A model generated the notes under the pieces. The model was not told the origin of the DNA, searched no databases, and was given only the letters and a program-made list of their open reading frames with translations. Shown here piece after piece: positions 913 to 61,835 of a stretch of DNA of 64,000 nucleotides. Location: NCBI GenBank assembly GCA_022841795.1, contig JALHQU010000016.1, positions 3,238 through 67,237 of the forward strand, written 5' to 3'. The translations under genes and the position numbers were made by a program. The stretch comes from Fimbriiglobus sp. (GTDB lineage Bacteria > Planctomycetota > Planctomycetia > Gemmatales > Gemmataceae). The first letter of the stretch is position 1; each line of letters opens with the position of its first letter.

Positions 913-2733
913 TTAGCCCACGAACACCCCGTCGGTCATGAGCGACCCGCCGAACGGCGAGCTGAACACCGTGCCGCCGTCGCCCACCAGGTACACCCCG
1001 CCGCCGGATCGCCCGCCGGTGCCCACCACCACCTCGGGCCGGCCGTCTCCGGCGAAGTCGCCGGCCGCCACCCGCGCCCCGCCGGTGTACCCGTCCGCCT
1101 GCGGGATGATGTAGCTGCTGAGCGGGGCGGCCACCGCCTTCGCCCCGTCGCCGGTGTGGGTGAGGGTGGCCCCGCTGATCACCTGCACGTGCATCGCCCC
1201 CACCCCGGCCCCGAACACCACGTCCCCGAACCCGTCGGCGTTCAGGTCGGACACGGCCACATACGCCCCGTTGTTCACCGCCAGGTCGTAGGCGAAGAAG
1301 TCGTACACCAGCCGCTGCGGGGTCTGCCCGCCGCCGACCGTCCGCCCGTCGTAGATGGCGATCCGCGGCCCGCCGCCGAACCCGGCGGCCACCACCAGGT
1401 CCGCCCGCCGGTCGCCGTTCACGTCGCCCACGGCCAGCCGCACCCCGCCGCGGAAGTTGGCGTCGTCGATCCCCCAGAAGTCGGCGGACACGCTGTCCGG
1501 GTTGCCGCCGCTGAACGCCCGCACCCGCGGGCCGCCGCCCTGGTCGGCCCCGACGATCAGGTCGTCCCGCCCGTCCCCGTCGATGTCCCCGGCGGCCAGC
1601 ATCACCCCGCCGCTGAAGTACCACTCGTAGGCGAAGAAGCTCCGCACCTCGCCGCCGGTCTTGCCGTCGTACACCTTCACCATCGGCCCGCCGCCCGGCC
1701 CGGCGCCGACGGCGATGTCCGTCACCCCGTCGCCGGTGAAGTCGCCGGTGGCGGTGCGGACGGACCCGCCGAACCCGCCGAACGGCGTCACCGGCGAGCC
1801 GACCGGGGTGAGCACGCCGCCGGTCGCCGCGTACACCTGGAACGTGCCGTTCGACCCGCCGACCACCACCGGCTCGAACGTGCCCAACTGCGGGGAGACG
1901 CCCGGCGTCGGGGTGGTCACGCTGCCGGCGCTCACCTCCCACCCGATGTCCGCCAGGGCGGCGTAGTCCAGGTCGGAGAACGCCACCCGCGTGCCGGCCG
2001 AGATGTACGGCTGCATGGACACGGCCGCGCCGTTCGAGGTGATGCCCTGTCGCCAGTGCCCGGACTCGGCGGTGCTGATTTGCGGGTTGGTGCCGCCGTT
2101 CGCCGCCCGCGCGTTCGCCCCGGTGAAGCTGCCGCCGGATACCAGCCCGGTCCACTGGCTGGCGATGCCGAACCCGAGCACGTGCCCGAGCTCGTGGACG
2201 GCCACCGAGTACAGGTCGGTCTGCGACCCGGCCGGCGCCCCCAGCCCGGAGTTCCAGTTGGTGTCGCTGCTGAACGAGATGGACCCGCCCCACGAGGCGA
2301 ACCCGCCGCGGCCGCGGGTGCGGAGCAGGTTGAACCAGTCGCCCATGCCGGATGCCGAGTACCCGCCGAACCCGCCCAGCCCGGCCTCGCCCCCGCCAAT
2401 GCCCGCCTGCCCGCCGACGAACACCACGATCTGGTCGGTGCCGACGGTCAGGTTGGGCACCGACACCTGCCGGCTCGGGTCGGACGGGTTGAACGTGGTG
2501 GCCGTCCACGAGTTGCCGCCGGCCGGGGCGATGGCGGCCAGGTCCACGCTGGTGTTCAACCGGGCCGACACGTCCCGCCCGGCCTGTTCGAGCGTCGCCC
2601 GCCGGGTCGGGTCGCTGAAGAACCCGGTGGCGTCGAACCTGTAGTCGAATGTGATCTGGAGGGCAGCCGGCACCTCGCGGGCTTCCAGGCATTCCAGCCG
2701 CCATGCAAACGGACGCGTATGGAGACTCGTCAT
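913..2733 (-). CDS. secreted FG-GAP/VCBS repeat protein with N-terminal metzincin-like zinc metalloprotease motif
   Basis: HELGHVLGF (HExxHxxGxxH) zinc-binding motif. Multiple FG-GAP-like repeats (GDFxGDGxxDxxVG, DxNGDGxxD). N-terminus carries LECLEAREVPA motif and no hydrophobic signal peptide. Confidence 0.75.
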   Translation of the reverse strand: MTSLHTRPFAWRLECLEAREVPAALQITFDYRFDATGFFSDPTRRATLEQAGRDVSARLNTSVDLAAIAPAGGNSWTATTFNPSDPSRQVSVPNLTVGTDQIVVFVGGQAGIGGGEAGLGGFGGYSASGMGDWFNLLRTRGRGGFASWGGSISFSSDTNWNSGLGAPAGSQTDLYSVAVHELGHVLGFGIASQWTGLVSGGSFTGANARAANGGTNPQISTAESGHWRQGITSNGAAVSMQPYISAGTRVAFSDLDYAALADIGWEVSAGSVTTPTPGVSPQLGTFEPVVVGGSNGTFQVYAATGGVLTPVGSPVTPFGGFGGSVRTATGDFTGDGVTDIAVGAGPGGGPMVKVYDGKTGGEVRSFFAYEWYFSGGVMLAAGDIDGDGRDDLIVGADQGGGPRVRAFSGGNPDSVSADFWGIDDANFRGGVRLAVGDVNGDRRADLVVAAGFGGGPRIAIYDGRTVGGGQTPQRLVYDFFAYDLAVNNGAYVAVSDLNADGFGDVVFGAGVGAMHVQVISGATLTHTGDGAKAVAAPLSSYIIPQADGYTGGARVAAGDFAGDGRPEVVVGTGGRSGGGVYLVGDGGTVFSSPFGGSLMTDGVFVG

Positions 2734-3151
2734 GGGACGAACCCCTCCGGGTGAGTCGAAATCAGGTCGGGTGCGGCCGAGCGAGAAAAGTCCGCCGCAA
2801 TTCGGCGGACCCCGAACGGGAGCGGCGGCGACGGGAGGGGACCGCGGCAGCTCGGGACGCGGAGTGTCTGTAGGACGTGATCCGACAGCGTGTCAAACGA
2901 GTCTGGAAAATAGGGAAATCGCAAGTTTCCGCGGGGAAACAGTTGGCGCTAACCGTCCGGAATTCAGACCGCCGCGGGCGCGAAAACTGTTGCCCCGCCG
3001 CCCCGATTCGGCCCCGGCCAATCGGGTGAGAGCCGGGTGAGAACCGCCCGCCCGCCAGGTCGCCTGTTGCCGTCCGGTTCGTCTTCGGGCAAAATGTTCC
3101 CTCTCACCGCTCTCTCAGTTCGACCTCACTCGCTCGCCCACGGAGGCCCCC

Positions 3152-4909
3152 ATGCTCAGGTTCCCGCCCGCCGTCCGCCGACTCGCGGCGACATCACTGC
3201 TTCTGGCGCTGTCCGCCGGGGTGGTGTTCGCCGGCTCGCCGAAGGACAACAAGCCGGCCGGCAAGGCCGACGTTGCGGCCCTCACCCCGATCGACATCGA
3301 CAAGAAGATCATCGACGACATCAAGGCGAACACGCAGGTGAGCCAGAACCTGCAGCACCTGTGCGACGTGATCGGCCCGCGGCTGACCGGCTCGGCCAAC
3401 CTGAAGAAGGCGAACGAGTGGGCGGCCGAGAAGATGAAGGAGTACGGGCTGACCAACGTGAAGTTGGAGCCGTGGGAGATCCCGGTCGGGTGGGAGCGGG
3501 GCACCGCCACCCTGAAGATGATCGAGCCGAACCCGGGCAAGCAGATCCCGGTGGCGGCCAGCGCCTGGACGCCCGGCACCAAGGGCAAGATCACCGGCGA
3601 GGTGGTGTTCCTCGATGCCAAGACCAAGGACGACCTGGCCAAGTACAAGGGCAAGCTGAAGGACGCGCTCGTCCTGTCCCGCCCGCCGTCAAACGTCGCC
3701 CCGATCACCGACCTGCGGTACGGGGCCGGCTCCGGCCCGCAGGCCCCGCCGCCCGCCCCGCCGAAAGACGAGCCGAAGAAGGAGGACAAGAAGGACGAGG
3801 TGAAGAAGGACGACCAGCCGCCGGCGGGCGGCGGGCGGGGCGGGTTCGGCCCGGAGGCGATGGCGCTCCGCCAGGCGATGGGCGAGTTCCTGCGGGCGGA
3901 GGGGGCGGCGGTCATGCTGTCCGATTCGGCCAAGCCGCACGGCCTGATCGTCACCGGCGGCGGGTGGGGGCGGATGGGCGGGGGACCGGGCGGCGGGGAG
4001 GGCGGCCGGGCGGCCCCGGAGCCGATGCCGTCGCTCAGCCTGGCGCACGAGACGTACACCATGCTGTACCGGCTGGCCACCAGCAAGGACGGGCCGAAGC
4101 CGAAGGTGGAAGTCGAGATCACCAACACGTTCATCCCCGGCCCGATCACAGTGTACAACACCGTCGGCGAGATCGTCGGCAGCGAGAAGCCGGACGAGTT
4201 CGTGGTCATCGGCGCGCACCTGGACTCGTGGGACCTGGGCACCGGGGCGACGGACAACGGCACCGGCAGTTGCGCCGTGCTGGAGGTGGCCCGCACCCTG
4301 GGCGCGCTGGCCAAGCAGGGGATCAAGCCGAAGCGGACCATCCGGTTCGTGCTGTTCACCGGCGAGGAGCAGGGGCTGCACGGGTCGAAGCAGTACGTCT
4401 CCCGGCACAAGGACGAGATGCCGAAGACGTCCGCCTGCCTGGTGCACGACACCGGCACCGGCAAGGTGCTCGGGCTGGCCATGCAGGGCCGCACGAAGGT
4501 GCGGGACATCCTGGAGCCGGAGTTGGCCAGCCTGAAGGATGTCGAGGGGTGGAAGGGGCTGAACATGCGGAACCAGGGCGGCACCGACCACCTGTCGTTC
4601 GACGCCGTCGGGGTGCCCGGGTTCGCCTGCGACCAGGAGACGGACGAGTACCGGCTGACCCACCACACCCAGACGGACACCTACGACCACGTGAAGATCC
4701 CGAACATCGTGCAGGGGTCGCAGGTGATGGCGGTGGCGGTGCTGCGGATCGCCAACCTGCCGGACATGCTGCCGCGGGAGCGGCCGGCCCGCACGGGCGG
4801 CGGTCGCGGCGGACCCGGCGGCCCGCCGCCGGCCGAGGAAGTGAAGAAGGACGAGGTGAAGAAGGAGGAGAAGAAAGAAGACAAGAAGGACGAGAAGAAG
4901 GATAAATAG
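3152..4909 (+). CDS. M28 family peptidase with signal peptide and Lys/Glu-rich low-complexity tail
   Basis: Signal peptide LLLALSAGVVFA. M28 zinc-ligand block HLDSWDLGTGATDNGTGS and EEQGLHGS. Internal and C-terminal KDE-rich repeats ending ...KKDEKKDK. Confidence 0.85.
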   Translation: MLRFPPAVRRLAATSLLLALSAGVVFAGSPKDNKPAGKADVAALTPIDIDKKIIDDIKANTQVSQNLQHLCDVIGPRLTGSANLKKANEWAAEKMKEYGLTNVKLEPWEIPVGWERGTATLKMIEPNPGKQIPVAASAWTPGTKGKITGEVVFLDAKTKDDLAKYKGKLKDALVLSRPPSNVAPITDLRYGAGSGPQAPPPAPPKDEPKKEDKKDEVKKDDQPPAGGGRGGFGPEAMALRQAMGEFLRAEGAAVMLSDSAKPHGLIVTGGGWGRMGGGPGGGEGGRAAPEPMPSLSLAHETYTMLYRLATSKDGPKPKVEVEITNTFIPGPITVYNTVGEIVGSEKPDEFVVIGAHLDSWDLGTGATDNGTGSCAVLEVARTLGALAKQGIKPKRTIRFVLFTGEEQGLHGSKQYVSRHKDEMPKTSACLVHDTGTGKVLGLAMQGRTKVRDILEPELASLKDVEGWKGLNMRNQGGTDHLSFDAVGVPGFACDQETDEYRLTHHTQTDTYDHVKIPNIVQGSQVMAVAVLRIANLPDMLPRERPARTGGGRGGPGGPPPAEEVKKDEVKKEEKKEDKKDEKKDK

Positions 4910-7692: not shown

Positions 7693-7782
7693 GGGCGAAC
7701 GGTCGGCGTCAGCCGGCCGGTGGTTTGACGAACGGTTGATTCTGGCGTGAACCACCGGCCGGCTGACGCCGACCGTTCGCCC
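7693..7782. repeat. perfect 33-bp inverted repeat with 24-nt loop between DUF1553 and DUF1501 genes
   Basis: GGGCGAACGGTCGGCGTCAGCCGGCCGGTGGTT ... AACCACCGGCCGGCTGACGCCGACCGTTCGCCC, read directly from the sequence. It fills the 106 bp intercistronic gap. Confidence 0.85.
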
Positions 7783-10101: not shown

Positions 10102-10182
10102 GAAATGCGACCGGCACGGGGAGGGATAGCGATCACAGCTATTCTGCCCCGCGCCGGCCGGATGTTCAACAGGCAACCGCGA

Positions 10183-10641
10183 TCACTTGTCCTTCTTCTC
10201 CTCCTTCATCCGCTTCAGGGTGAAGACGGCCACGTTCTTCCCGTCCGGCTTCATCTCCGTCGGCCGTTTGGCGTCCTTCTGCCCGCCCTCGGTCATACAG
10301 ATCTTGAGCGTATCGCCGTCCAACTCGTAGATGCCCAGTTGAACCCGATCCCCCCGCACCAGGTCGATCGTCTTCACCTTGGCCGCCGGGTCTGTCTTGT
10401 ACTCCCCTTCCTTCTTTTCACCCGGCGACCCGGCGACCATCGCCATCTTGCCGTCCTTGTTGAAGATGAATCGCATCGTCTCCAAATCTTCCTTCGACGG
10501 GCCACCCGCCCCGCCGGTGTCGAGCTTTTCGATCTTCCAGGTGCCGAGGATGGCGTCCTTGTCCTTCGCCGGGTCGGCGGCCGGCAAGCATCCGGTCACG
10601 GCGACCGCCACCGCGAAAACGGGCAGTACGAATCGCATCAC
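10183..10641 (-). CDS. TIGR03067-like secreted small protein (Planctomycetes paralog family), type A
   Basis: Signal peptide/lipobox-like MMRFVLPVFAVAVAVTGC. ILGTWKIEKLD motif, IYELDGDTLKIC, KE-rich tail KRMKEEKKDK. Confidence 0.75.
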   Translation of the reverse strand: MMRFVLPVFAVAVAVTGCLPAADPAKDKDAILGTWKIEKLDTGGAGGPSKEDLETMRFIFNKDGKMAMVAGSPGEKKEGEYKTDPAAKVKTIDLVRGDRVQLGIYELDGDTLKICMTEGGQKDAKRPTEMKPDGKNVAVFTLKRMKEEKKDK

Positions 10642-10675
10642 GGGTCTCCGAGAGTGGGGTTGGGAAGCGGGCGGA

Positions 10676-11122
10676 TCACTTGTCCTTGCTTTCCTCCTTC
10701 ACCCGCTTGAACACGAGGCAGTACTGGCCGCCGGGTCCGCCGCCCTTGAACTCGGTCGGCCGCGGCCGCCCCGGCTGGGCGTGGCACACCGTCAGCGTGT
10801 CCCCCTCCAGCTTGTAGATGTACGGCAGGGGTTCCTTCACCGTCTTCCAGGTGACGTCCATGTGCTTCGGGGATTGGGACTCGTCCAGGGTGAACAGGGT
10901 GTCCGGCGGCCTCTCGGGGGTGCCGTTGCCCGAGCTCATTTTCCCGTCCTGGATCACCTTCCACCACATGGCATCGGCTTTCGGCCCTTGCCCGCCGTCG
11001 AGCGTGACGCCCACCCACCGCCCTTCGAGCAATTCGGCGTCCGACTTCTTCTTCAGTGACTTCGGCACCGGCGCGGCGGCAGCCGCCGACGTGACCAGCA
11101 GCAACACGACGGCGGTACGCAC
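10676..11122 (-). CDS. TIGR03067-like secreted small protein, type B (GTG start)
   Basis: Start trimmed to GTG giving (M)RTAVVLLLVTSAAAAAPVPK. Paralog of 11131..11577 (EGRWVGVTLDGGQGPK, YIYKLEGDTLTVC, tail KRVKEESKDK). Confidence 0.65.
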   Translation of the reverse strand: MRTAVVLLLVTSAAAAAPVPKSLKKKSDAELLEGRWVGVTLDGGQGPKADAMWWKVIQDGKMSSGNGTPERPPDTLFTLDESQSPKHMDVTWKTVKEPLPYIYKLEGDTLTVCHAQPGRPRPTEFKGGGPGGQYCLVFKRVKEESKDK

Positions 11123-11130
11123 CGGGCACC

Positions 11131-11577
11131 TCACTTGCTCTCGTCCTTCACCCGCTTCCAGACGAACGTGGTGCCGACCTGCCCGCCGGCGAACGCGGTG
11201 GGCCGCGGCTGGCCGGTGCTGGAGTGGATGGTCTTCAGCGTGTCGCCGTCCAGCTCGTAGATGTACAGGCAGGTGGACCCGCCGGTCGTCACGTCCAGGT
11301 GCCGGGGCGACTGGGTCTGGTCGAGCGTCATGCCCGCCCCGACGTACCCCTTGGATTTGGGTGTGCCGGTGTGCAGCTTCCCCTCCGTCACCCGCCAGTA
11401 GAACCCCTCCCAGCCCGGCGGCGGGGGCTTCGGCCCTTTCCCCTCGTCCACCGTCTCCACCTGCCACAACCCCTCCATCTGCTGGAGGTCGTCCGCCTTC
11501 TTGATCGTCTTCGGCACCGGGGCGGCGACTACCGACGCGGCCAGCAGAGCGACGACCGGGACGGCGAACCGCGGCAT
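11131..11577 (-). CDS. TIGR03067-like secreted small protein, type B
   Basis: MPRFAVPVVALLAASVVAAPVPK signal. EGLWQVETVDEGKGPK, YIYELDGDTLKTI, tail KRVKDESK. Confidence 0.7.
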   Translation of the reverse strand: MPRFAVPVVALLAASVVAAPVPKTIKKADDLQQMEGLWQVETVDEGKGPKPPPPGWEGFYWRVTEGKLHTGTPKSKGYVGAGMTLDQTQSPRHLDVTTGGSTCLYIYELDGDTLKTIHSSTGQPRPTAFAGGQVGTTFVWKRVKDESK

Positions 11578-11646
11578 GGCTTGGCCCTGATGAGCGTGAT
11601 TCGTTCATTTTGCCCGGCGTCCGGCGGGGAAGCAACTCGCAAAATT

Positions 11647-11709
11647 GGAACCGGGCACGCCGTGACCGGGTGGGTTCCGAACCCACCCGGTCACGGCGTG
11701 CCCGGTTCC
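11647..11709. repeat. near-perfect 63-nt palindrome (30-bp arms) inside the paralog array
   Basis: GGAACCGGGCACGCCGTGACCGGGTGGGTT-CCG-AACCCACCCGGTCACGGCGTGCCCGGTTCC. Only the 3-nt centre breaks the symmetry. Confidence 0.85.
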
Positions 11710-11720
11710 AGACACCTCGC

Positions 11721-12176
11721 TCACTTATCCTTCTTCTCCTCCTTCACCCGCTTGAGCGTGACCACCGGCATCCCCTTCTCGTTCGGCTTCATCTCGGTCG
11801 GCCGCTTGGCGTCCTTCCCCTCGGCGATGCAGATCCTGAGGGTGTCGCCGTCCAACTCGTAAATGCCGGGGGAGGTGCGGCCTTCGCGGACCAGGTCGAT
11901 CGCCTTCACCTTGGCCGCCGGGTCCAGCTTGTACTCGCCTTCCATCTTTTCGCCCCCCGGCCCGCCGGCCATCTCCATCTTGCCGTCCTTCTTGAAGATC
12001 AGCCGCATCGTCTCCAAGTCGTCTTTCGACGGGCCGCCCTGCCCGCCGCCGTTGTCGAACTTCTCGATCTTCCAGGTGCCCTGGATGGCGTCCTCGTCCT
12101 TCGCCTTCTCCTTGTTCTGGGCGACGGCGAGCAGGGCGGTGGCGGCCACCGCGAGCACGGGCAGAACGAATCGCAT
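11721..12176 (-). CDS. TIGR03067-like secreted small protein, type A
   Basis: Start trimmed to MRFVLPVLAVAATALLAVA. IQGTWKIEKFD, IYELDGDTLRIC, tail KRVKEEKKDK. Confidence 0.75.
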   Translation of the reverse strand: MRFVLPVLAVAATALLAVAQNKEKAKDEDAIQGTWKIEKFDNGGGQGGPSKDDLETMRLIFKKDGKMEMAGGPGGEKMEGEYKLDPAAKVKAIDLVREGRTSPGIYELDGDTLRICIAEGKDAKRPTEMKPNEKGMPVVTLKRVKEEKKDK

Positions 12177-12240
12177 CGCGAGTCTCCGGGGTGTAAGGTT
12201 GGAAACGGACGGCTCGGTGCCGAACGCTTTCGCGTTCGGC

Positions 12241-12309
12241 GGGCCGCCACAGAGGGCGGCCCCTACGCCGAAAAGCTCTCTTCGTAGGGGCCGCCCTCTG
12301 TGGCGGCCC
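12241..12309. repeat. REP-like element: two inverted copies of GTAGGGGCCGCCCTCTGTGGCGGCCC flanking a short stem-loop
   Basis: GGGCCGCCACAGAGGGCGGCCCCTACG ... CGTAGGGGCCGCCCTCTGTGGCGGCCC. The same 22-26 bp unit recurs at 43195..43216. Confidence 0.8.
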
Positions 12310-12347
12310 GTGGTCCGGCCCCGCCGGACCACTCCCGGACCCATCTC

Positions 12348-12815
12348 TCACTTTTCCTTCTTCTCGTCTTCCTTCACCCGCTTCAGGGTGATGACGGCGA
12401 TGTTCTTCCCGTCCGTCTTCATCTCCGTCGGCCGCACGCCCTTCTGCCCGCCTTCGGACACGCAGATCTTGAGCGTGTCGCCGTCCAGTTCGTAGATGCC
12501 CAGCATCGTGCTGGTCTTCTCGATCATGTCGAGCGACTTCGGCGTGGTGGTGGCGTCGAGTTTGTAGTCGATCTCGTCCTGCATCCCGTCGCCGCGGCTG
12601 GCGGCCACCTTCCCGTCCTTGAACGTCAGCCGCAGCTTGGTAATCTCGCCGGGCGGCGGGCCGCCGGCGGCCCCGCCCAGGTCGAACGTCTCCACCTTCC
12701 AGGTGCCGAGGATGGCGTCCTCGTCTTTGACTTTCGCTTTCTCCTTTGGCACCGGGGCGGCGGTCAGCCCGAGGGCCAAGGCGGGCAGGACGAGGGCGGT
12801 CAGAGCGAATCGCAT
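12348..12815 (-). CDS. TIGR03067-like secreted small protein, type A
   Basis: MRFALTALVLPALALGLTAAPVPK. ILGTWKVETFD, IYELDGDTLKIC, tail KRVKEDEKKEK. Confidence 0.75.
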   Translation of the reverse strand: MRFALTALVLPALALGLTAAPVPKEKAKVKDEDAILGTWKVETFDLGGAAGGPPPGEITKLRLTFKDGKVAASRGDGMQDEIDYKLDATTTPKSLDMIEKTSTMLGIYELDGDTLKICVSEGGQKGVRPTEMKTDGKNIAVITLKRVKEDEKKEK

Positions 12816-12846
12816 CGGGAGTCTCCGGGTTCGGGGTCAGGGCGGG

Positions 12847-13329
12847 TTACTTGTCCTTCTTCTCTTCCTTCTTCTCCTCGTCCTTCACCCGCTTGAACGT
12901 GACCACCGCCATCCGCGGGCCGCCCGGTTTGAACTCCGTCGGTCGGGGGTCCTTTCCCTCGGACATGCACATCTTGAAGGTGTCGCCGTCCAGTTCGTAG
13001 ATGGCGAGGGCCGGCTTCCCGTCCAGGGTCATGTCGAGCGTTTTTGGGCTGGCCTTCGCGTCCATCTTGTACTCGCCGTCCCGGCTCTGCCCGCCGGGGC
13101 CGCCGGTCAGGCTCATCTTGCCGTCCTTCTTGAACACGAACCGCATCGCGTCCAGCGCTTCCTTCGGCGGCGCTCCCTGCGGCCCGCCGGCCTCGAACGA
13201 CTCGATCTTCCAACTGCCCTGGATGGCGTCTTCATCCTTCGCCGCCTTGTCTTTGTCTTTGGGCACGGGGGCAGCGGTCAGGCCGACGGCGGCGGCGAAC
13301 AGCACCGCGGCTGCGAGGGTGAGGCGCAT
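12847..13329 (-). CDS. TIGR03067-like secreted small protein, type A
   Basis: Start trimmed to MRLTLAAAVLFAAAVGLTAAPVPK. IQGSWKIESFE, IYELDGDTFKMC, tail KRVKDEEKKEEKKDK. Confidence 0.75.
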   Translation of the reverse strand: MRLTLAAAVLFAAAVGLTAAPVPKDKDKAAKDEDAIQGSWKIESFEAGGPQGAPPKEALDAMRFVFKKDGKMSLTGGPGGQSRDGEYKMDAKASPKTLDMTLDGKPALAIYELDGDTFKMCMSEGKDPRPTEFKPGGPRMAVVTFKRVKDEEKKEEKKDK

Positions 13330-16191: not shown

Positions 16192-16710
16192 ATGCCCGCC
16201 GACGACCCGATCGACGACCGCGACCCGCCGGCCCCCCGCGCCCGCCGCCGCGACCCGGACGACCGATACGACGACGAGGACGACGACCGCTGGCGGCCCG
16301 CCCGCCACTACGACGAGGACGGGTACGAGATCAGCTCGAACGACCAGATGTGGGCCATCTTCGCCCACGTCGGCGTGTTCGTGGCCGGGTTCCTCGCCCC
16401 GCTCATCATCTTCTTCGTGCAGGGCGACAAGTCGGAATTCGTGAAGCGGCACGCGCGGGAGTCGCTCAACCACCAGATCGCGATGACGCTGTACATCTTC
16501 CTGTGGATGTTCGTGGCCGCCCTGATCGGGCTTGCCGTCGGCGGGGCCACGCAGTCGGCCGCGGCCGGGTTCATCACCGGGTATGTGCTGTTCCTACTCG
16601 GGGCGGTCGCGCTCGGCATCAAGAACACGGTGGTGATCGTGCTGGCCACCCTCGCCGCGTCCAAGTACCGGCACTACCGCTACCCGATGAGCATCCGCCT
16701 GCTGGGGTGA
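16192..16710 (+). CDS. DUF4870 family membrane protein (tandem paralog with acidic N-terminal extension)
   Basis: FVKRHARESLNHQIAMTLYIF ... YRHYRYPMSIRLLG. Paralogous to the upstream gene. Confidence 0.7.
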   Translation: MPADDPIDDRDPPAPRARRRDPDDRYDDEDDDRWRPARHYDEDGYEISSNDQMWAIFAHVGVFVAGFLAPLIIFFVQGDKSEFVKRHARESLNHQIAMTLYIFLWMFVAALIGLAVGGATQSAAAGFITGYVLFLLGAVALGIKNTVVIVLATLAASKYRHYRYPMSIRLLG

Positions 16711-16731
16711 ACGGCCAACCCGGTGAACCGC

Positions 16732-16788
16732 GGGTGTCAGCCCGCCGGGTGTGTTTCCTACCCAGGCGGCTGACGCCGCCGGTTCACC
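16732..16788. repeat. GGTGAACCG...CGGTTCACC palindromic repeat, family copy 1
   Basis: GGTGAACCGCGGGTGTCAGCCCGCCGGGTGTGTTTCCTACCCAGGCGGCTGACGCCGCCGGTTCACC. Near-identical copies occur at 37635 and 39423. Confidence 0.8.
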
Positions 16789-20236: not shown

Positions 20237-21184
20237 ATGCGGATCGTGAAGTGCCAGATCATGCAGCCCGCTCGCCTCTGGCTCTCGGACAGCGGCCGCA
20301 AGCTGGCCGTGGCGGAAGCGTGGCGGGGCGTGGACGTGTACGACCTGCACACCGGCTGTGTCGGGGTGGGGCTGGGGGGCGGGTTCATCGGCCGGCTGAT
20401 CGACGGGTTCGACGCCGACGACCGCCTGCGGGTGATCCCGGGCAAGGCGTTCCCGCTCAACCTCGGTCGGATGGTCCACACGGAGGTGACGAAACTCCCC
20501 CTCATTCCTCCCGCCTGGGCCGACGAGGTGGCCGCGACCGTGGCGGGTCCGATCGCCCTGTCGGCGGACGGCCGCCGGTGCGTGGCGGCGATCGGGTTCA
20601 CCCTGCGGCTGTTCGTCAAAGGGGCGAGCGGGGAGTGGGCCGAGAAGTGGAAGCGGGACACCGAGGCCCACCTGTCCGGTCGCATCCGCTTCCTGCCGGG
20701 CGACACCCGCTGCTCGTTCGTGGAAACGGTGTTCGCGGGCAAGCACAACCCGTTCACCCGGTACAGTCTGGTCGTGTGGGACATGCGGGCCGGGCGGGAG
20801 GCCGGCCGGAGTACACCGACCCGCCGGCCGTTCACGCACGTCGTGCCGGTCGGCCGCCAACTCGTGGTCGGAACGAACGCCACGGCCGGCAAGGTGCTGT
20901 CGAGTGAGCTGGTCGTGTTCGAGGCGGATCACCTGGACCGCGAACCGCGGACGGTGGCGTCCGGCAAGGATCCGATCGCGGCGGTGTGTGCCGACCCGCT
21001 CGGCCGGTTCGTACTCACCGCGGCCGGCAAACTGGTGACGCAGTGGGACCCGGCCACTTGGCTGCCGGCCCGCACGTTCAACTGGAAGATCGGCACCATC
21101 ACCTGCCTGACGGTGAACCCGAACGGCACCATCGCCGCCGCCGGCGGCTACCAGGGCAAGGTGGCCGTGTGGGACGTGGAGTGA
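20237..21184 (+). CDS. WD40-like beta-propeller protein (tandem paralog 1)
   Basis: Start is 3 bp after the stop of the heme protein. C-terminal blade FNWKIGTITCLTVNPNGTIAAAGGYQGKVAVWDVE. Confidence 0.6.
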   Translation: MRIVKCQIMQPARLWLSDSGRKLAVAEAWRGVDVYDLHTGCVGVGLGGGFIGRLIDGFDADDRLRVIPGKAFPLNLGRMVHTEVTKLPLIPPAWADEVAATVAGPIALSADGRRCVAAIGFTLRLFVKGASGEWAEKWKRDTEAHLSGRIRFLPGDTRCSFVETVFAGKHNPFTRYSLVVWDMRAGREAGRSTPTRRPFTHVVPVGRQLVVGTNATAGKVLSSELVVFEADHLDREPRTVASGKDPIAAVCADPLGRFVLTAAGKLVTQWDPATWLPARTFNWKIGTITCLTVNPNGTIAAAGGYQGKVAVWDVE

Positions 21185-21187
21185 CCG

Positions 21188-22114
21188 ATGCGGATCGTGG
21201 CGTGCAGTTACAAGTCGGTGCGGGAGGTCGGGTTCACCCCGGACGCCCGCACCCTGGTCGCGCTCGGGCACCTGTCCACGCCCGGCCGGTGCGAGTGGCA
21301 CGACCTGGCCGGCGACCGCCCGCCGCGGGTCCACACGCTGAGCAGCATCTCGTGGAACGGGTTCGCCGTCAGCCCGCACGACGGCACCGTCCTCATCGGC
21401 GACGCGACCGAACTGCTCGAATTCCCGCCGGCCGGCGGCGAGGTGATCCGGCACGCCTACCCCGACAACCGGCTGTGGAAGGTGGCTGTCTCGCCGGACG
21501 GCCGGCGGCTGGCGTGCGCCGCCGACGGCATCTCGTTCGGCCGCAACCGCGTGCCCATCCGGCTGAGCGGGCACACCCGCACGGGCAAGGGGTGGAAACA
21601 GGCGTGGAAGTTCGACGGCACCGGCACCCGGTTCGGCCAGCCAGTGTTCCTGCCGGACGGCAAGCGGATCGCGGTGTTGCAGTCCGGCGGCAAGAAGGTG
21701 AAAGGCCGGTTCGAGCCGCGGGCCACGCTGTCCGTCCTGAGCACGCAGGGGAAGCTGCTTCACGAGCGGTCGTACGCCGGCGCGTTCCTCGACCTGGCCG
21801 TGTGCGGGGAACACCTCGTCCTCGGCGACAGCCACCTGCTCCGCGTACTTCCGCTCGCCGACCTGGACGCCGAGCCGGTCCTCGTCAGCCTGGGCAACAA
21901 GCACCTGTACGCCCTGTGCGGCGACCCGCTCGGCCGGTTCCTGCTGGCCGGGTGCGGGAAGCAGGTGCTGGAGTTCGACCCGGCGTCGTGGAAGCCGGCC
22001 CGCCAGTTCGACTGGAAAATTGGTACGGTGGCGTGCCTGGCCGTGTCTGCCGACGGCACCGTCGCCGCCGCCGGCGGGGACAAGGGCAAGGTGGCCGTGT
22101 GGGACGTGGGGTGA
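21188..22114 (+). CDS. WD40-like beta-propeller protein (tandem paralog 2)
   Basis: 4 bp after the previous stop. C-terminus FDWKIGTVACLAVSADGTVAAAGGDKGKVAVWDVG is nearly identical to paralog 1. Confidence 0.6.
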   Translation: MRIVACSYKSVREVGFTPDARTLVALGHLSTPGRCEWHDLAGDRPPRVHTLSSISWNGFAVSPHDGTVLIGDATELLEFPPAGGEVIRHAYPDNRLWKVAVSPDGRRLACAADGISFGRNRVPIRLSGHTRTGKGWKQAWKFDGTGTRFGQPVFLPDGKRIAVLQSGGKKVKGRFEPRATLSVLSTQGKLLHERSYAGAFLDLAVCGEHLVLGDSHLLRVLPLADLDAEPVLVSLGNKHLYALCGDPLGRFLLAGCGKQVLEFDPASWKPARQFDWKIGTVACLAVSADGTVAAAGGDKGKVAVWDVG

Positions 22115-22149
22115 ACAGGGATGCTCTGCCGGTAGCGGGCGGTGTGGTG

Positions 22150-22363
22150 GGAGGCCCGAAGGGCCGTCCTCCCTCAGCCCAAGTCGGAGCGAGCGGAGCG
22201 AGCGCAGGCCTGGGAACCACGGTGAAGGTGAACAAGCCCCGAAGGGGCGGGCTACCTGAGGGCGCCCCTTCGGGGCTTGGGGGGTGTTGATCGTTCGCAC
22301 CCAGGGCGACGTTCGCCTGCGGCTCACTTGCCCTGGGCTGAGGGAGTCCGGCCCTTCGGGCCT
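22150..22363. repeat. about 215-bp nested palindromic element, copy A (candidate MITE or structured RNA)
   Basis: Outer arms AGGCCCGAAGGGCC...GGCCCTTCGGGCCT. Inner pair CAAGCCCCGAAGGGGCG / CGCCCCTTCGGGGCTTG. Second copy at 48567..48782. Confidence 0.8.
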
Positions 22364-22376
22364 ACAGACAGAGCTA

Positions 22377-22832
22377 TCACCCGCCGTGCCGCCGCTTCAC
22401 CAGGTTCACCAGCCGGTCGAGTTCGGCCAGCAACCGCGAGCGGTCTTTCGGCGTCATCCCGCTCGGCCCGCCGCTCGCCACCCCAGCTTCCCGCAGGTCG
22501 GTCATCAGGTCGCGGACGGCCACCGCCTCGCCCACCGTGTTCTCGTCCAGCACCCGGCCCTTCGGGTCGATCGCGATGCCGCCGGCGGCCACCACGCGGG
22601 CGGCCAGCGGGATGTCGGCGGTGACGCACAGGTCGCCGGGTTTACACTGCTCCGCAATCCAGTCGTCGGCCGCCCCGAACCCGGCCACCGTCATCAGCGA
22701 GACGAGCGGGTGGTCTTGGATCGCCATCGGGGTGTTCGCCACCACCACCACGGGCACGGCATACCGCCCCGCCACCCGGTACGTCTCGGGCTTCACCGGG
22801 CAGGCGTCGGCGTCGATGTAGATGGTCGGCAT
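22377..22832 (-). CDS. yaiI: YaiI/DUF188 (UPF0178) family protein
   Basis: MPTIYIDADACPVK N-terminus and overall similarity to E. coli YaiI (ADxPLAA, RDLMTDLREAG). Confidence 0.8.
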   Translation of the reverse strand: MPTIYIDADACPVKPETYRVAGRYAVPVVVVANTPMAIQDHPLVSLMTVAGFGAADDWIAEQCKPGDLCVTADIPLAARVVAAGGIAIDPKGRVLDENTVGEAVAVRDLMTDLREAGVASGGPSGMTPKDRSRLLAELDRLVNLVKRRHGG

Positions 22833-23583: not shown

Positions 23584-23674
23584 AACCACAGAGGCACAGG
23601 GACACAGAGAAGACGAGAAGAATTGCTCGGAAACTATCTTCCTGTCTTCTCTGTGTCCCTGTGCCTCTGTGGTT
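23584..23674. repeat. AACCACAGAGGCACAG... hairpin repeat (31-bp arms), copy 1
   Basis: AACCACAGAGGCACAGGGACACAGAGAAGAC-29 nt-GTCTTCTCTGTGTCCCTGTGCCTCTGTGGTT. Related copy at 44279..44356. Confidence 0.8.
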
Positions 23675-36624: not shown

Positions 36625-37626
36625 ATGAGCCACACCGACTACGAGCGGCCGGAGTTCCCCGAGGGCGACCTGCCGGCCGAGTTCGCCGCCCTGTTCCCGC
36701 ACGGGTGGGCCGGGCCGGACGTGCTGGCCGAACTCGCCCCGCACGGGTGGGCCGCGTCCCCGCTGGTGGCGGCGTTCCACCCGTCCGCCGCCCAGGTCCA
36801 CGCGGAGCGGGTGCGGATGCACCGCGGGCTGGCGAACTTCCCCGGCCGCAAGCCGGATGCCCCGCCGCCACCGCCGGAACCCACCCTGGCCGAGGTGGAG
36901 GCCGAGTTCGCCGACGGGCCGGGCGAGGTGGAGCCGGAGCGGGAGTGCCGCGAGCTGGTCGGCCTGTGCCTGTGGGACGTGTTCTCCGACAACCACGAGG
37001 TGATCGCCGACGACGGCCGCTGGCTGCACCTGGGGTCGGCGCGGGGGAGCGGCGGGTTCCTGGCCGACCTCCTGAACGCCCAGGGCGGCCCGCCCCCGCC
37101 GCCCAAGCCGCAACTGCCGCCCGAGTTAGAAGCCCAGCTCTTCCCGCAGTCGGACGACCCGCGGGTGCGGGCGATGATCGACGAGATGCGGAAGGAGATG
37201 ATCGGCGACGGCGGGTACACCTACCTGGACTTCTACATGGGCACGCACGCGGTGGCCGACCGGGCCGACCTGACGCCGGTGTACGAGCTGATCTTCCGCC
37301 GGCTGAAGGCCCGCGGGCACGACTGGGTGTACCACTTCCCGCGGCTCGGGCTGGTGGACTTCCGCCCGCTCAAGAAGCAGATGGACGAGCAGGCGCGGCA
37401 GGAGCGGGGCGAGTCCGAGTTCGAGAACTACGACCCGGAGAAGGCGATGGCCGAGGAGGAGGAGGACCGGAAGCGGGACGAGGAGATCGCGCGGATGCAG
37501 GAGTCGCTCGACGAGGGCTACCGGGAGAGCGTGGCGGCGGCGCTGGACCAGCCGCCGCCGACGACCGTGCGGGCGTACACCGCGGTGTACGGGCATTTCC
37601 CCGACGGCTGGCCGCCGGAGGGGTGA
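36625..37626 (+). CDS. hypothetical protein (333 aa, acidic C-terminus)
   Basis: Well-formed ORF with normal composition. No recognisable domain. Sits 36 bp downstream of the antitoxin-like gene. Confidence 0.5.
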   Translation: MSHTDYERPEFPEGDLPAEFAALFPHGWAGPDVLAELAPHGWAASPLVAAFHPSAAQVHAERVRMHRGLANFPGRKPDAPPPPPEPTLAEVEAEFADGPGEVEPERECRELVGLCLWDVFSDNHEVIADDGRWLHLGSARGSGGFLADLLNAQGGPPPPPKPQLPPELEAQLFPQSDDPRVRAMIDEMRKEMIGDGGYTYLDFYMGTHAVADRADLTPVYELIFRRLKARGHDWVYHFPRLGLVDFRPLKKQMDEQARQERGESEFENYDPEKAMAEEEEDRKRDEEIARMQESLDEGYRESVAAALDQPPPTTVRAYTAVYGHFPDGWPPEG

Positions 37627-37634
37627 TCGATTTG

Positions 37635-37699
37635 GTGAACCGCGGGCGTCAGCCCGTCGGGTGTGTTCCCACCCAGGCGGCTCACGCCGCCGGTTCACC
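37635..37699. repeat. GGTGAACCG...CGGTTCACC palindromic repeat, family copy 2
   Basis: GGTGAACCGCGGGCGTCAGCCCGTCGGGTGTGTTCCCACCCAGGCGGCTCACGCCGCCGGTTCACC. Confidence 0.8.
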
Positions 37700-39392: not shown

Positions 39393-39488
39393 TGGTGAAC
39401 CGCGAGCGTCAGCCGCAGATCGGGTGAACCGCGGGCGTCAGCCCGTCGGGTTCTGAACACACCCAGGCGGCTCACGCCGCCGGTTCAC
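39393..39488. repeat. GGTGAACCG...CGGTTCACC palindromic repeat, family copy 3 with tandem partial duplication of the left arm
   Basis: GGTGAACCGCGAGCGTCAGCC...GGTGAACCGCGGGCGTCAGCCCGTCGGG...CCCAGGCGGCTCACGCCGCCGGTTCACC, in a divergent promoter region. Confidence 0.8.
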
Positions 39489-39711
39489 CCAAGACCGCCT
39501 GAAGGCGGGACACCAGCGAAGACACCGACGACCCCGCTCGCAGGCTCGCGGCGATGACGCCGATTCGCCGCAAGTCGTTGGCGGGTGAGGGATGTTCCAA
39601 AAATGCGCAACGTTTCCCGGTGGGGTGTGTACAAACCCGCCGAATGAAACGGCGGCGGCGGCCCCGCCTTTTCCCGCTTGTGGTTCCGCCGGCCGGACCG
39701 ACAATGTCCGC

Positions 39712-42700: not shown

Positions 42701-43194
42701 GGGGCCGGCCGTGGTCGCAACCGAGATTGCTCCCCGCCGGCGCGGTTGATCTGGCGAACGCCGACGCCGACCCGGACCGCTACTACCTGCCGACCGCCGA
42801 CCGGGTGTTCGCGGTGAACCGCGAGTCCGGCCGGCAGGAGTGGTCCGCCCCGCTGCCCGAGTTGCCGGACGGGTCGAGCTGGACGGTGCGGGCCGGCCGC
42901 CGGGCGGTCATCGCCCACCCGACCGCCGCCCTGCCGAACGAACCGCTCGCCCCGCGCCCGCTCCGCCGGTTCGCCGAGTTCCCGTCCGCCGTGCGGCTGC
43001 TCGGGGTGGCGGCGTCTCTGGGCGACGGCTGGGCGAACCGTACCCTGCCCGTACTGCTGCTCGACCCGGAGTCCGGCCGACAGGCGGGGCGGCTCGATGT
43101 GCCGGCGGTCGGGCCGATGGCAGCCGTGCATCTGCACGCGGAGACGGCGGCGGTGGTGACGGCCGGCCGGATCGCGTGGCTGACGAACAAGTAG
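39712..43194 (+). CDS. large secreted TPR + PQQ-like (BamB-like) beta-propeller repeat protein
   Basis: Signal peptide MVRRLILIVLLLVAAPAVA. N-terminal TPR-like helices, then many PQQ/BamB-like beta-propeller repeats (GRVYRFDLRTGAV, DGDAVYALDADTGRPLW). Start trimmed from 39592. Confidence 0.7.
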   Translation: MVRRLILIVLLLVAAPAVAQPVNATRLRGEAEAVRTRKRLTEARQKLTDNKPAEAADDLQKILDESGDDLVAVKDGQFVPARRLVQQYLAALPANALATFRRRIDEPARKLLDAGRSARDPRPLTELLERYFVSRPAEDALLLLGELAFERGDFPAAEKHWRKLLADDSEEMKYPEPKTDPAGVKARLVLCRLFAGDAAGAEADLAKFRTAHPKASGMLAGVNAPYADTLAKLIASKPKVPSDAAGWTTFAGNPARDGKPDAPLPRYWSGVRPWKEPIPREKKDQDRPNPASFAAAKTLALHPVVLGGFAYLADAGRVYRFDLRTGAVRLAYHFETLNDPPDIPPKDLALPCQLDADFTLTVGGGRLFARLGPAALPGGSDQGKKPRTYLVCLEPKDPLNLEADALTLSARWQAAPPAAADLFAAWEGAPLWADGRVYAAFVRVENSRFVHAVACYPDSAASKPLWVTDVCDADANRGTGTKNRHEVLTRAGGNVVFGSHTGVTVALNAVSGKPAWAFRNPLAVRPPATSPRDLCPPLAAAGKVFVAPADGDAVYALDADTGRPLWTSAPELQVDQLLGVSRGRLIVTLNAPNKGVRAFDVNTGEDQQPGGWRHVGAALPTHGRGIAGDDLILWPTQSATSKSLWLLDPDDGRPAFVPQPRIPGVAGNLAFADGVLLVATESELWGYVFDRKPPAKPAEGTTPTVILGTVPRPAFDPAPVVRPAKAGFDPVAAPSLGEGAKVARTAALPPGAYPLRPLAASSDSRVALTDGKSLFVIDPTNGKTVLRARIDTPAALTSAAIAVDGGVVAVGPHAVVVVSADGRKRWDHHSPDLELSAFTFAGSRLVMRAGERGLIALDLTTGKVAWALDTLKRPEVRPHEFDAAPRFGPFLGADGPAVIVQREHEWWRVSADTGQVDHSGETTGADWVTPPAAYKGGVLIPTAAGGVTTWASGREEKLLDPGRPASWTGTPPAVRVFGDDVLVAVSRNTGVEVQRAGGRPWSQPRLLPAGAVDLANADADPDRYYLPTADRVFAVNRESGRQEWSAPLPELPDGSSWTVRAGRRAVIAHPTAALPNEPLAPRPLRRFAEFPSAVRLLGVAASLGDGWANRTLPVLLLDPESGRQAGRLDVPAVGPMAAVHLHAETAAVVTAGRIAWLTNK

Positions 43195-43216
43195 GGGCCG
43201 CCCTCTGTGGCGGCCC
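43195..43216. repeat. REP unit GGGCCGCCCTCTGTGGCGGCCC (third copy)
   Basis: Identical to the units at 12241 and 12288. Overlaps the stop codon of the upstream gene and the GTG start region of moxR. Confidence 0.75.
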
Positions 43217-44280
43217 GCGGAGAACCTCCCGTGTCCGACGCACTCAAGCCGATCATCCTGGACGACGACGAGGTGCAGACCGCCGAGCGGCTACGGTTCT
43301 CGTGCCAGAAACTGCTGGCCGAGTGCGGGAAGGTGATCGTCGGCCAGACGGAGGTACTGGAGCAGCTGCTGCTGGCGGTGCTGGCCCGCGGGCACTGCCT
43401 GCTGGTGGGCGTGCCGGGGCTGGCGAAGACGCTCATGATCCGCACCCTGGCGGACGGCATGAACCTGACGTTCAACCGGGTGCAATTTACACCGGACCTG
43501 ATGCCGACGGACATCACCGGCACGGAAATCCTGTACGACGACAAGGGCAGCGGGCAGCGCGGGTTCCGGTTCGTGAACGGGCCGATCTTCGCCAACATCG
43601 TGCTGGCCGACGAGATCAACCGCACCCCGCCGAAGACCCAGGCGGCGCTGCTCGAAGCCATGCAGGAGCGACAAGTGACGGTCGCCGGCTCCCGGCACAA
43701 GCTGCCCGACCCGTTCTTCGTGCTGGCGACGCAGAACCCGATCGAGCAGGAGGGCACGTACCCGCTGCCGGAAGCCCAGCAGGACCGCTTCATGTTCAAC
43801 ATCCGGGTGGACTACCCGGACGAGGAGGACGAGTACCGCATCATCGAGTCCACCACCTCGGCCAGCCGCCCGCACCTGGACCGGGTGATCGCCACCGCCG
43901 ACATCCTGCAGATGCAGGACCTGGTGCTGAAGGTGCCGGCGGCGCAGTACGTCATCCGGTACGCCGGCAAGCTGGCCCGCGCCACCCGCCCGAAGGCGAA
44001 CCCCGGCGAGGACAGCACCGCCCCGGACTTCGTGAAGAAGTACGTCAGCTTCGGCGCCGGCCCGCGGGCCGGGCAGAGCCTGATCCTGGCGTCCAAGGCG
44101 CGGGCCATCCTGCACGGCCGCACCTACGTGGCGATCGACGACGTGAAGGCGGTGGCGCAGCCGGTGCTGCGGCACCGCATCATGACCAACTACCACGCCG
44201 AGGCCGAGGGCATCAGCAGCGACGACATCGTCACCCGCCTGCTGCCGCTGATCCCGCGGGACGGGGAAAAAGGCAACTAA
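43207..44280 (+). CDS. moxR: MoxR-family AAA+ ATPase
   Basis: VIVGQTEVLEQLLLAVLARGHCLLVGVPGLAKT Walker A, LADEINR Walker B. An alternative GTG start at 43231 is possible. Confidence 0.85.
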   Translation: MAARGEPPVSDALKPIILDDDEVQTAERLRFSCQKLLAECGKVIVGQTEVLEQLLLAVLARGHCLLVGVPGLAKTLMIRTLADGMNLTFNRVQFTPDLMPTDITGTEILYDDKGSGQRGFRFVNGPIFANIVLADEINRTPPKTQAALLEAMQERQVTVAGSRHKLPDPFFVLATQNPIEQEGTYPLPEAQQDRFMFNIRVDYPDEEDEYRIIESTTSASRPHLDRVIATADILQMQDLVLKVPAAQYVIRYAGKLARATRPKANPGEDSTAPDFVKKYVSFGAGPRAGQSLILASKARAILHGRTYVAIDDVKAVAQPVLRHRIMTNYHAEAEGISSDDIVTRLLPLIPRDGEKGN

Positions 44281-44356
44281 CCACAGAGGCACAGAGACAC
44301 CGAGAAGTCAGAGAACCGTTCTGTCGTCTTCTCTGAGTCTCTGTGCCTCTGTGGTT
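44279..44356. repeat. AACCACAGAGGCACAG... hairpin repeat, copy 2
   Basis: AACCACAGAGGCACAGAGACACCGAGAAG ... TCTTCTCTGAGTCTCTGTGCCTCTGTGGTT, between moxR and the DUF58 gene. Confidence 0.8.
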
Positions 44357-48566: not shown

Positions 48567-48782
48567 GGAGGCCCGAAGGGCCGGACTCCCTTAGCCCAGG
48601 TCGGAGCGAGCCGAAGGCGAGCGCAGGCCTGGGTAACGGGTGTGAAGGGGAACAAGCCCCGTAGGGGCGAGCTAAGACAGGCCGCCCCTACGGGGCTTGG
48701 GTGAATGGCAGACCGCAACCCAGGGCGACGTTCGCCTTCGGCTCACTTGCCCTGGGCTGAGGGAGTGCGGCCCTTCGGGCCT
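48567..48782. repeat. about 215-bp nested palindromic element, copy B
   Basis: Same architecture as 22150..22363. Inner hairpins read CAAGCCCCGTAGGGGCG / CGCCCCTACGGGGCTTG. Confidence 0.8.
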
Positions 48783-48816
48783 TAAAACGGCGGACTTCGA
48801 CCGAACGGCGGGTCCG

Positions 48817-61757: not shown

Positions 61758-61765
61758 GTTGAACA

Positions 61766-61832: not shown

Positions 61833-61835
61833 ATT

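Follow-up and report, generated by a model that had tools for sequence, protein, structure and literature searches.

We examined a palindromic element that occurs twice in a 64,000-nt stretch of genome from the planctomycete Fimbriiglobus sp. (Gemmataceae; contig JALHQU010000016.1, positions 3,238 to 67,237; hereafter the window), and that looks like ordinary repeat DNA of a known general kind rather than a new structured or regulatory RNA. Copy A spans 212 nucleotides (nt; 22152..22363) and copy B 214 nt (48569..48782), each no more than 2 nt from where the original prediction had placed two intergenic imperfect palindromes and in the genomic context it had described, with a WD-like gene pair by A and a GT39 gene by B. 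Copy A occupies the spacer between the stop codon of a WD40 gene (21188-22114, +) and that of a convergent DUF188/YaiI gene (22377-22832, -), and copy B the spacer between a PMT_2/GT39-type gene (48817-50505, -) and a PEP-CTERM gene (47859-48482, -), where it lies 34 nt past a stop codon. Both copies are predicted to fold into a long hairpin whose stability is well above that of shuffled controls, at -151 kcal/mol (z -8.5) for A and -180 kcal/mol (z -16.3) for B with RNA parameters, and at -98 kcal/mol (z -13.5) for B with DNA parameters. The two are highly similar, as had been claimed, but not at roughly 90 percent identity: their global alignment holds 183 matches, 26 mismatches and 8 gap columns, which amounts to 84%, or to 87.6% when gaps are ignored.

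Each copy consists of two inverted 46-nt double-hairpin modules, its arms, set around twin, mutually complementary GCCCC-NNN-GGGGC hairpins. The outer arms AGGCCCGAAGGGCC...GGCCCTTCGGGCCT reported earlier were found in both A and B, and each of the 4 arms in the window holds one occurrence of a 32-nt outer-arm pattern, which none of 100 shuffles contained. The left arm of copy A (22151..22214, -) is made up of a hairpin with a long loop insert (H2), the linker CTGAGGGAGGAC and a second hairpin (H1, GGCCCTTCGGGCC), and its right arm (22300..22364, +) of H2 (CCCAGGGC, a 22-nt insert, GCCCTGGG), the linker CTGAGGGAGTCC, H1 GGCCCTTCGGGCC and then a T. Between these arms stand the central hairpins C1 (GCCCCGAAGGGGC; 22236..22248, +) and C2 (GCCCCTTCGGGGC; 22264..22276, +), the latter being the reverse complement of the former, and both lie within stretches that are present exactly as they had been quoted (CAAGCCCCGAAGGGGCG at 22233-22249 and CGCCCCTTCGGGGCTTG at 22263-22279). 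Copy B repeats this plan with a left arm module at 48568..48633 (-), a right arm module at 48719..48783 (+), and the hairpins C1 (GCCCCGTAGGGGC; 48656..48668, +) and C2 (GCCCCTACGGGGC; 48684..48696, +) within the GTA/TAC versions of the quoted stretches (48653-48669 and 48683-48699).

A scan for the arm pattern GGCCCGAAGGGCCGNNCTCCCTNAGCCC (exact over 25 bases), in which each species was represented by a single genome, revealed that the arms belong to a wider family, with 26 loci from Isosphaera, Fimbriiglobus, Frigoriglobus, metagenome-assembled genomes (MAGs) of Planctomycetia and Phycisphaeraceae and, unexpectedly, Thermoanaerobaculia (Acidobacteriota), several of them at contig ends. At these loci the arm is a compact 46 nt that reads H2 CCCAGGSC-GTT-GSCCTGGG, linker CTGAGGGAGnnC, H1 GGCCC-TTC-GGGCC and T, giving a module plan of H2 (CCCAGGSC..GSCCTGGG), a 12-nt linker beginning CT, H1 with a 5-bp stem and a 3-nt loop, and a trailing T. 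A covariance model built from 20 of these 46-nt units (R1) found 57 strong modules in the window and 28 loci (29 sources). All four window arms aligned to R1 end to end at 49-61 bits (copy A left, 52.0 bits, E 1.7e-9; copy A right, 59.9 bits, E 2.9e-11; copy B left, 49.4 bits, E 6.4e-9; copy B right, 61.4 bits, E 1.3e-11), their sole departure being a 22-25-nt insert in the H2 loop. Nearly all modules form inverted doublets, either with the H1 ends facing (><, gaps of 6-67 nt) or with the H2 ends facing (<>, gaps of 13-125 nt), and the window copies are doublets of the <> type. By a home-made GC-frame gene call, which is crude, especially at lower-GC loci, and which was used only for intergenic location and spacer types, all 57 modules fall between genes, in spacers of the tandem, convergent and apparently divergent types.

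The family's structural constraint acts on the local hairpins H1 and H2, not on pairing between the arms. In an alignment of the 57 modules that was fitted to R1 and so favours its structure, 98.6% of the H1 and H2 cells are standard pairs and 48 cells carry double-sided changes against 15.5 ± 2.5 in column shuffles, and both pairing measures collapse when partners are slid by one to three columns. Doublets from Thermoanaerobaculia combine arms of different subtypes (H2 GGGC/GCCC vs GCCC/GGGC), which keep their own hairpins and have lost arm-to-arm complementarity. The 12-nt linker is almost invariant within the R1 subfamily, and two single-stranded parts of the module are conserved, namely this linker, which follows H2 and reads CT[GA]A..., and the T-C-A that comes behind H1. 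Most of the 57 modules (alignment A4) run T-C-A-R after H1 (T in 52/57, C in 27, A in 34), the window copies having no TCA, and the stretch that separates the facing H1 hairpins of >< doublets forms a palindrome of its own (TCAGAC..GTCTGA).

The composite of arms and centre also recurs as a conserved unit. Scanning metagenomes for the twin hairpins as GCCCCGNAGGGGC-N8-24-GCCCCTNCGGGGC returned at least 120 loci, and among the matches listed the loop bases of the twins were complementary in 111/122 cases. Among those listed with both flanks available (n=95), an arm descriptor (7-bp H2 stem, CT, 10 nt, 5-3-5 H1) with a background of 0.03 matches per kb per strand found both arms in the geometry of the window in 39 and one arm in 21. 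A set of 46 composites measured 172-223 nt, and the longest (200-223 nt) carry CGCTCGC/TTCG-rich H2-loop inserts like those of the window, the closest among the matches listed being L152. The H1 stems differ between the arms of one element in 20/46 composites, always by locally compensated changes. Since a hairpin is required by the descriptor itself, what counts here is the presence of nine distinct, perfectly paired H1 stems that are mixed between arms. Across the metagenomic elements the local hairpins covary, and complementarity between the arms is frequently lost. Some composites, at metagenome loci L075 and L104, lie inside an outer inverted repeat, AGCTAAAGTTTCTACACAAGT ... ACWTGTGTAGAAACTTTAGCT, which extends the palindrome to ~260 nt.

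These composites also bear on a mirrored loop substitution that the original prediction had taken as covariation between the two halves of the element. The change itself is real, with A22242 and T22270 of copy A standing opposite T48662 (in C1) and A48690 (in C2) of copy B, such that GAA/TTC becomes GTA/TAC, but its evidential weight is small. When the differences between A and B were mapped onto the 84-pair long hairpin of copy B, 69 pairs were unchanged, 7 were broken by a one-sided change, 2 were turned to wobbles by a one-sided change, 1 went from TA to GT, 1 was broken by a double change, 3 had a gap on one side, and the mirrored loop base was the 1 clean Watson-Crick double change. Simulating 26 random substitutions in 200,000 trials gave at least one compensated pair in 33% of them. 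A sole clean compensation set beside 7 pair-breaking changes, and expected this often by chance, is insufficient as proof of long-range pairing, and because random compensation is so frequent, A and B alone do not demonstrate selection for arm-to-arm pairing. Arm-to-arm mismatch across the 46 composites was 7.5-11.6%, alike in stems, linkers and loops (9% at the central loop base), which indicates that the long-range pairs enjoy no special conservation and fits palindromic descent with decay or homogenisation. The symmetry of the arms would thus reflect palindromic descent and homogenisation, not selection for a long hairpin, and the mirrored loop base is most simply seen as a by-product of that descent or of repair in a folded-back intermediate, though it could be chance.

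Scanning the window against Rfam at the gathering thresholds left the element unmatched, the only match being an unrelated c-di-AMP riboswitch. In E-value mode, the Acido-Lenti-1 family (RF01687) scored 21.1 bits on the left arm of copy A, 24.2 bits on its right arm (22331-22363) and 27.4 bits on the central pair, all under the gathering score of 37, and the window arms fall below this cutoff because of their H2 loop insert. Short-loop modules at loci with the exact 25-base arm pattern (37.4-40.6 bits) and the arms of metagenomic composites (39.4-59.7 bits) pass it. All four window arms share the architecture of the motif, in which an ~8-bp hairpin is followed by a 12-nt linker with CU at its start, a second hairpin of 5 bp and a 3-nt loop, and a closing U, and differ from it in that the Rfam seed has an A/U-rich linker whereas theirs is G-rich (CTGAGGGAG). 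Judged from sequence, the arms are diverged, GC-rich relatives of Acido-Lenti-1. The seed, which already contains the planctomycete NC_005027 (Rhodopirellula), is likewise multi-copy, with clusters in tandem and on alternating strands. The motif, with 89 sequences, was described in 2010 as a probable small RNA (sRNA) without known function (Weinberg et al. 2010, PMC2864571), and Rfam types it as Gene; sRNA, function not known, whereas the evidence here points to a transposase-linked DNA repeat. No transposase link is made in the literature found to mention the motif. The 'Solibacter-1' repeat of Weinberg and colleagues, considered as a candidate for the centre of the element, is unrelated in sequence.

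Comparison with close relatives gave an empty site for copy A. A Logan contig ~91% identical to the window (L027) is collinear with it from the end of a large gene that lies upstream of the two WD40 genes, across DUF188 and LGT, as far as a radical-SAM gene, and eight further contigs (L157-L164) encode a DUF188 protein of the same 90%-identity cluster. Across these nine related Gemmataceae contigs (~90% identity), the stop TGA of the WD40-type gene abuts the stop TCA of the DUF188 gene (TGA|TCA) and copy A is absent. The segment present in the window and absent from all nine runs over 22115..22376, 262 nt that comprise 37 nt, the 212-nt palindrome and 13 nt, and the filled site reads TGA-ACAG...GCTA-TCA. 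These nine empty sites indicate that copy A is a derived insertion. Against them, the filled site has no target-site duplication of 2 nt or more, as is the rule for IS200/IS605-derived elements, which fits the chemistry of Y1 transposases and argues against a DDE-type MITE (a miniature transposable element with inverted repeats). For copy B no filled and empty pair was obtained, as identity to the nearest PMT_2 homologues reaches just 60-66% and the genes downstream differ. Looking up the exact DUF188 and PEP-CTERM proteins of the window, and the proteins P0001 and P0129, retrieved no record.

A candidate enzyme was found beside the repeats in other genomes. That no transposase lies nearby, as had been stated, is true of the window when searched by tblastn for Y1, but elsewhere modules and composites adjoin a Y1 HUH gene. 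One Fimbriiglobus MAG (L016) has an open reading frame of 150 amino acids (aa) between a minus- and a plus-orientation module ('< gene >', the same geometry as the window element), and its product is a Y1 HUH transposase (Pfam PF01797, E 2e-20). The closest solved structures by sequence are Deinococcus IS200/IS605 TnpA (2FYX, 2XM3; E 0.002-0.04), with which the HUH motif and the YI..Q tyrosine align, and all matches to solved structures with E up to 1 are transposases of the IS200/IS605 type. The Y1 family is large and markedly conserved: its top 120 matches are 66-89% identical, most of its clusters lie on a single contig, some matches are named as Thermoanaerobaculia or Planctomycetes, and many members are annotated 'RayT' by JGI.

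Fetching loci through Y1 homologues gave three further lineages, in which R1 modules lie upstream of the Y1 start at distances of 26-110 nt. The first is a genome of 7.05 Mb (L029), the second belongs to Thermoanaerobaculia (L030/L031) and the third is represented by L032-L036. The gene in L029 has a <> doublet upstream and three tandem 344-nt units downstream (2545-3448), each with a ~216-nt composite, whose centre has GCGGCCTGAAGGGCYGC hairpins where the window has GCCCC-NNN-GGGGC. Another locus, L148, met by chance in the twin-hairpin set, encodes a 43%-identical Y1 homologue amid divergent double-hairpin arms and twin hairpins recognised by eye, and an R1 scan of it gave 0 matches. The Y1 gene thus stands beside modules or composites in five independent lineages. 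It is present at 1/26 of the module loci, which, together with the mostly single-contig clusters, fits a low-copy enzyme that serves many repeats.

Among the known systems closest to this arrangement is the 'REPtron', in which repetitive extragenic palindromes (REPs) and their compound forms (bacterial interspersed mosaic elements, BIMEs, and REPINs) are paired with a REP-associated tyrosine transposase (RAYT) (Nunvar 2010; Bertels & Rainey 2011; PMC3116915, PMC6006769). Like these, the modules are short, multi-copy, GC-rich extragenic hairpins, typically arranged as inverted doublets with a spacer and sometimes in clusters, their paired arms frequently belong to different subtypes, as with Y and Z REPs in BIMEs, and there is a low-copy Y1 HUH gene flanked by repeats, with presence/absence polymorphism between relatives. 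The differences are that the unit here is a 46-nt double hairpin and not a single 20-40-nt palindrome, that the composite has a conserved twin-hairpin centre, that the enzyme seems not to be a class-2 RAYT, and that the element carries no 5' GT[AG]G tag; no conserved GT[AG]G (or CGTC) tetranucleotide was found at either foot of the modules. Its variant features are the double-hairpin module, the conserved composite and an IS200-like rather than RAYT-like partner, which are not tied together in the searchable literature.

Assigned by motif, the Y1 beside the modules would belong to TnpA-Y1 'subclass 1.2' (Quentin et al. 2018, PMC6006769), with which it shares the Y---Q--HH signature (YIDRQDEHH) and a conserved C-terminal extension (FQDE...W[DE]), both present in L016 and L148, as well as a short core (150 aa) and low copy number. 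That subclass was described as low-copy and generally without the typical terminal secondary structures of IS200 (Quentin et al. 2018, PMC6006769), whereas the Y1 here has hairpin repeats on its flanks and is found in Planctomycetota and Thermoanaerobaculia. Two further systems come from overlapping phyla (Planctomycetes, Acidobacteria): class 3 TnpA-Y1, for which 'atypical secondary structures with a CnGA foot' were described (Quentin 2018), and the TIRYT/TIRtron of Acidobacteria (Di Nocera 2013, PMC3733652). They are REPtron-like, with atypical repeated hairpins that number ~600 copies in Solibacter, and the window linker begins CTGA, fitting CnGA. Class 3 proteins differ, at 178 aa with NHVH, W[TA] and YV..EQ, from the Y1 here with DHVH, WQ and YIDRQ. 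The acidobacterial TIRYT proteins aligned by Di Nocera (e.g. aba 1552) were considered as the same enzyme and set aside, being RAYT-like (VVMPDHVH...WQ..F) and unlike this Y1. Within the searchable literature, neither the identity of the arms with Acido-Lenti-1 nor the link to a subclass-1.2-like Y1 appears to have been made before.

We consider it likely that each copy is a non-autonomous, REP/REPIN/BIME-like repeat mobilised by a Y1 enzyme, since the location of modules and composites beside a Y1 gene elsewhere and the lack of a target-site duplication suggest a REP/REPIN-like element and not a classical MITE with terminal inverted repeats (TIRs) and target-site duplications. Of the two options in the original prediction, a structured RNA and a structurally constrained MITE that forms cruciforms, the second comes close, in that the element belongs to a multi-copy family of palindromic repeats with a clear structural constraint and varies in presence between relatives, but it is probably neither a dedicated RNA nor a classical MITE. 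The modular anatomy, the family across phyla, the covariation of local hairpins, the empty site and the co-location with Y1 are documented above; the Y1 as mobilising activity, its action on hairpins in single-stranded DNA and the linker as a guide or cleavage sequence are proposed. Under this scheme, which draws on IS200/IS605 TnpA and the TnpA-REP of E. coli (as summarised in PMC6006769), the small hairpins would form in single-stranded DNA, for example on the lagging-strand template, and would be recognised by the conserved 150-aa IS200-like Y1 HUH transposase, the candidate enzyme, encoded elsewhere in the genome. The enzyme would cleave near the hairpins, aided by a short guide, for which the near-invariant 12-nt linker is a candidate, either as guide or as cleavage sequence, and the element would be excised and re-inserted without a target-site duplication. 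Copy A would have inserted in this way at the very junction of two convergent stop codons that abut, and as the ends are reverse complements, both strands would present the same end structure, as in REPINs. A more far-reaching version, on which our judgement is evenly divided, holds that Acido-Lenti-1 is a DNA recognition module, not an sRNA, of an unrecognised, phylum-spanning REPIN-RAYT-like partnership, in which the seven-hairpin composite (arm, twin hairpins, arm; ~180-220 nt) would be the mobile unit and the low-copy, conserved 'subclass 1.2' Y1 its dedicated, possibly domesticated mobilising or processing enzyme.

Several observations weigh against mobilisation by this enzyme. The ends of IS200/IS605 elements are normally not inverted repeats and carry hairpins in the same orientation, whereas the ends of the window element are reverse complements; IS200/IS605-derived elements insert 3' of a fixed tetra- or pentanucleotide. 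The same contrast of ends applies to PATEs, short, non-autonomous, MITE-like derivatives of IS200/IS605 that keep only the hairpin ends, make no target-site duplication and depend on a Y1 in trans: in them, as in IS200/IS605, the ends are not inverted repeats and one strand is active, whereas both strands of the window element show the same end structure. The L016 Y1 is not a canonical RAYT, scoring 17.6 bits on NCBIfam REP_Tyr_transpos (cutoff 80) and 50.8 bits on IS200 (cutoff 55), and tblastn found a Y1 transposase encoded nowhere in the 64-kb window, other transposase families having had no systematic screen. An R1 scan of ~50 kb of the closest relatives' contigs found 0 modules (~55 kb in total with L148; L148 and L157-L166). 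The insertion is known from a single empty site, and its 262 nt overrun the palindrome by 37 nt at the left end and 13 nt at the right, so that the mobile unit may not end where the palindrome does; IS200/IS605 elements are cleaved at sites outside their hairpins. The role of the Y1 as mobiliser of the modules is drawn from co-location, and a role at the RNA level, for instance as a 3'-UTR (untranslated region) stabiliser or terminator, may exist as an added function.

Taken as the sole explanation, such an RNA-level role, in which the element would be the Acido-Lenti-1 'sRNA' or a bidirectional terminator or exonuclease block in 3'-UTRs that spread through selection for that role, seems unlikely to us. 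It would account for the resemblance of the arms to an Rfam family typed Gene; sRNA (PMC2864571), for the very stable hairpins and for the position of A between convergent genes and of B 34 nt after a stop codon, and there is precedent in E. coli REPs, which are reported to influence how transcription ends and how stable mRNAs are (as summarised in PMC3733652). However, a dedicated RNA gene is disfavoured because modules run in either orientation, pair up as inverted doublets, form tandem arrays and lie in spacers between tandem, convergent and apparently divergent genes, because scans for sigma-70-like promoters and for T-tract or canonical terminators found none at either copy, and because the link to a transposase gene would go unexplained under an RNA-only model. 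In addition, nine close relatives do without the element at site A. Non-Watson-Crick pairs in H2, taken by eye from the listing of 46 composites, showed no excess of G-U over A-C in module orientation, but the numbers are small, and we set this asymmetry aside as a test of the RNA strand, there being too few non-canonical pairs.

The modules could also be preferred insertion targets of the Y1 insertion sequence rather than its substrates, by analogy with some other insertion sequences and group II introns that home into existing palindromic repeats, which we regard as improbable. Some insertion sequences do sit in REPs, as described for ISPpu9 of P. putida (PMC12288879), and both the varying distance from module to Y1 start (26-110 nt) and the absence of downstream modules in L030 and L032 would suit such homing. 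A homing insertion sequence would, however, be expected in several copies, whereas the Y1 is low-copy and present at 1/26 module loci; no distinct IS200-type ends were seen between modules and gene; and the association holds down to 43% protein identity with hairpin elements diverged to match, which points to co-evolution. Given this low copy number and co-divergence of enzyme and repeat, homing is less likely than the modules being substrates. A classical MITE moved by a DDE transposase acting through terminal inverted repeats would match the length of ~210 nt, the inverted termini and the intergenic location, yet it is very improbable indeed: the filled site shows no target-site duplication of at least 2 nt against the nine empty ones, the supposed TIRs are structured double hairpins with covarying stems, and Y1 is the only transposase domain among the called neighbour genes in the five Y1 lineages, with no DDE domain among them.

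If mobilisation by Y1 is correct, an orphan Rfam 'RNA' family from 2010 would become a DNA repeat with a candidate enzyme, and a candidate substrate would be gained for a Y1 HUH subclass to which a 2018 description ascribed neither insertion-sequence nor REP features. The REP/RAYT paradigm would then reach Planctomycetota and Acidobacteriota with a double-hairpin unit and a conserved 12-nt linker. Such repeats would also break metagenome assemblies, several matches lying at contig ends, and could be mis-annotated as sRNAs.

Around the two copies, a number of further features were seen. The WD40-like genes before copy A are tandem paralogues (20238-21184 and 21188-22114, both +) with 3' ends 77% identical; the gene is single-copy in the eight related Gemmataceae contigs, and L027 retains a fused start-plus-end vestige of ~45 nt. 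Near copy B, the c-di-AMP riboswitch (RF00379, 55.6 bits; 47515-47671, -) lies just downstream of the PEP-CTERM gene and upstream of a 713-aa SPFH/Band_7 gene (45296-47437, -). Other intergenic palindromes in the window, some of them multi-copy, are unrelated to the element in sequence (23584-23674 and 44279-44356; 7693-7782; 11646-11710; 49880-49944; 61760-61838; 12236-12266 with 43191-43221), and several families of hairpin repeats seem to abound in the genome. Three copies (16707-16788, 37619-37699 and 39408-39489) were seen of a repeat of ~80 nt whose ends, GGTGAACCGCGGGCGTCAGCCCG ... GGCGGCTCACGCCGCCGGTTCACC, are palindromic. Lastly, four to five small paralogous genes form an array at 10176-13256 (-), with repeats of 60-90% similarity that share signal-peptide-like starts and a common C-terminal block.

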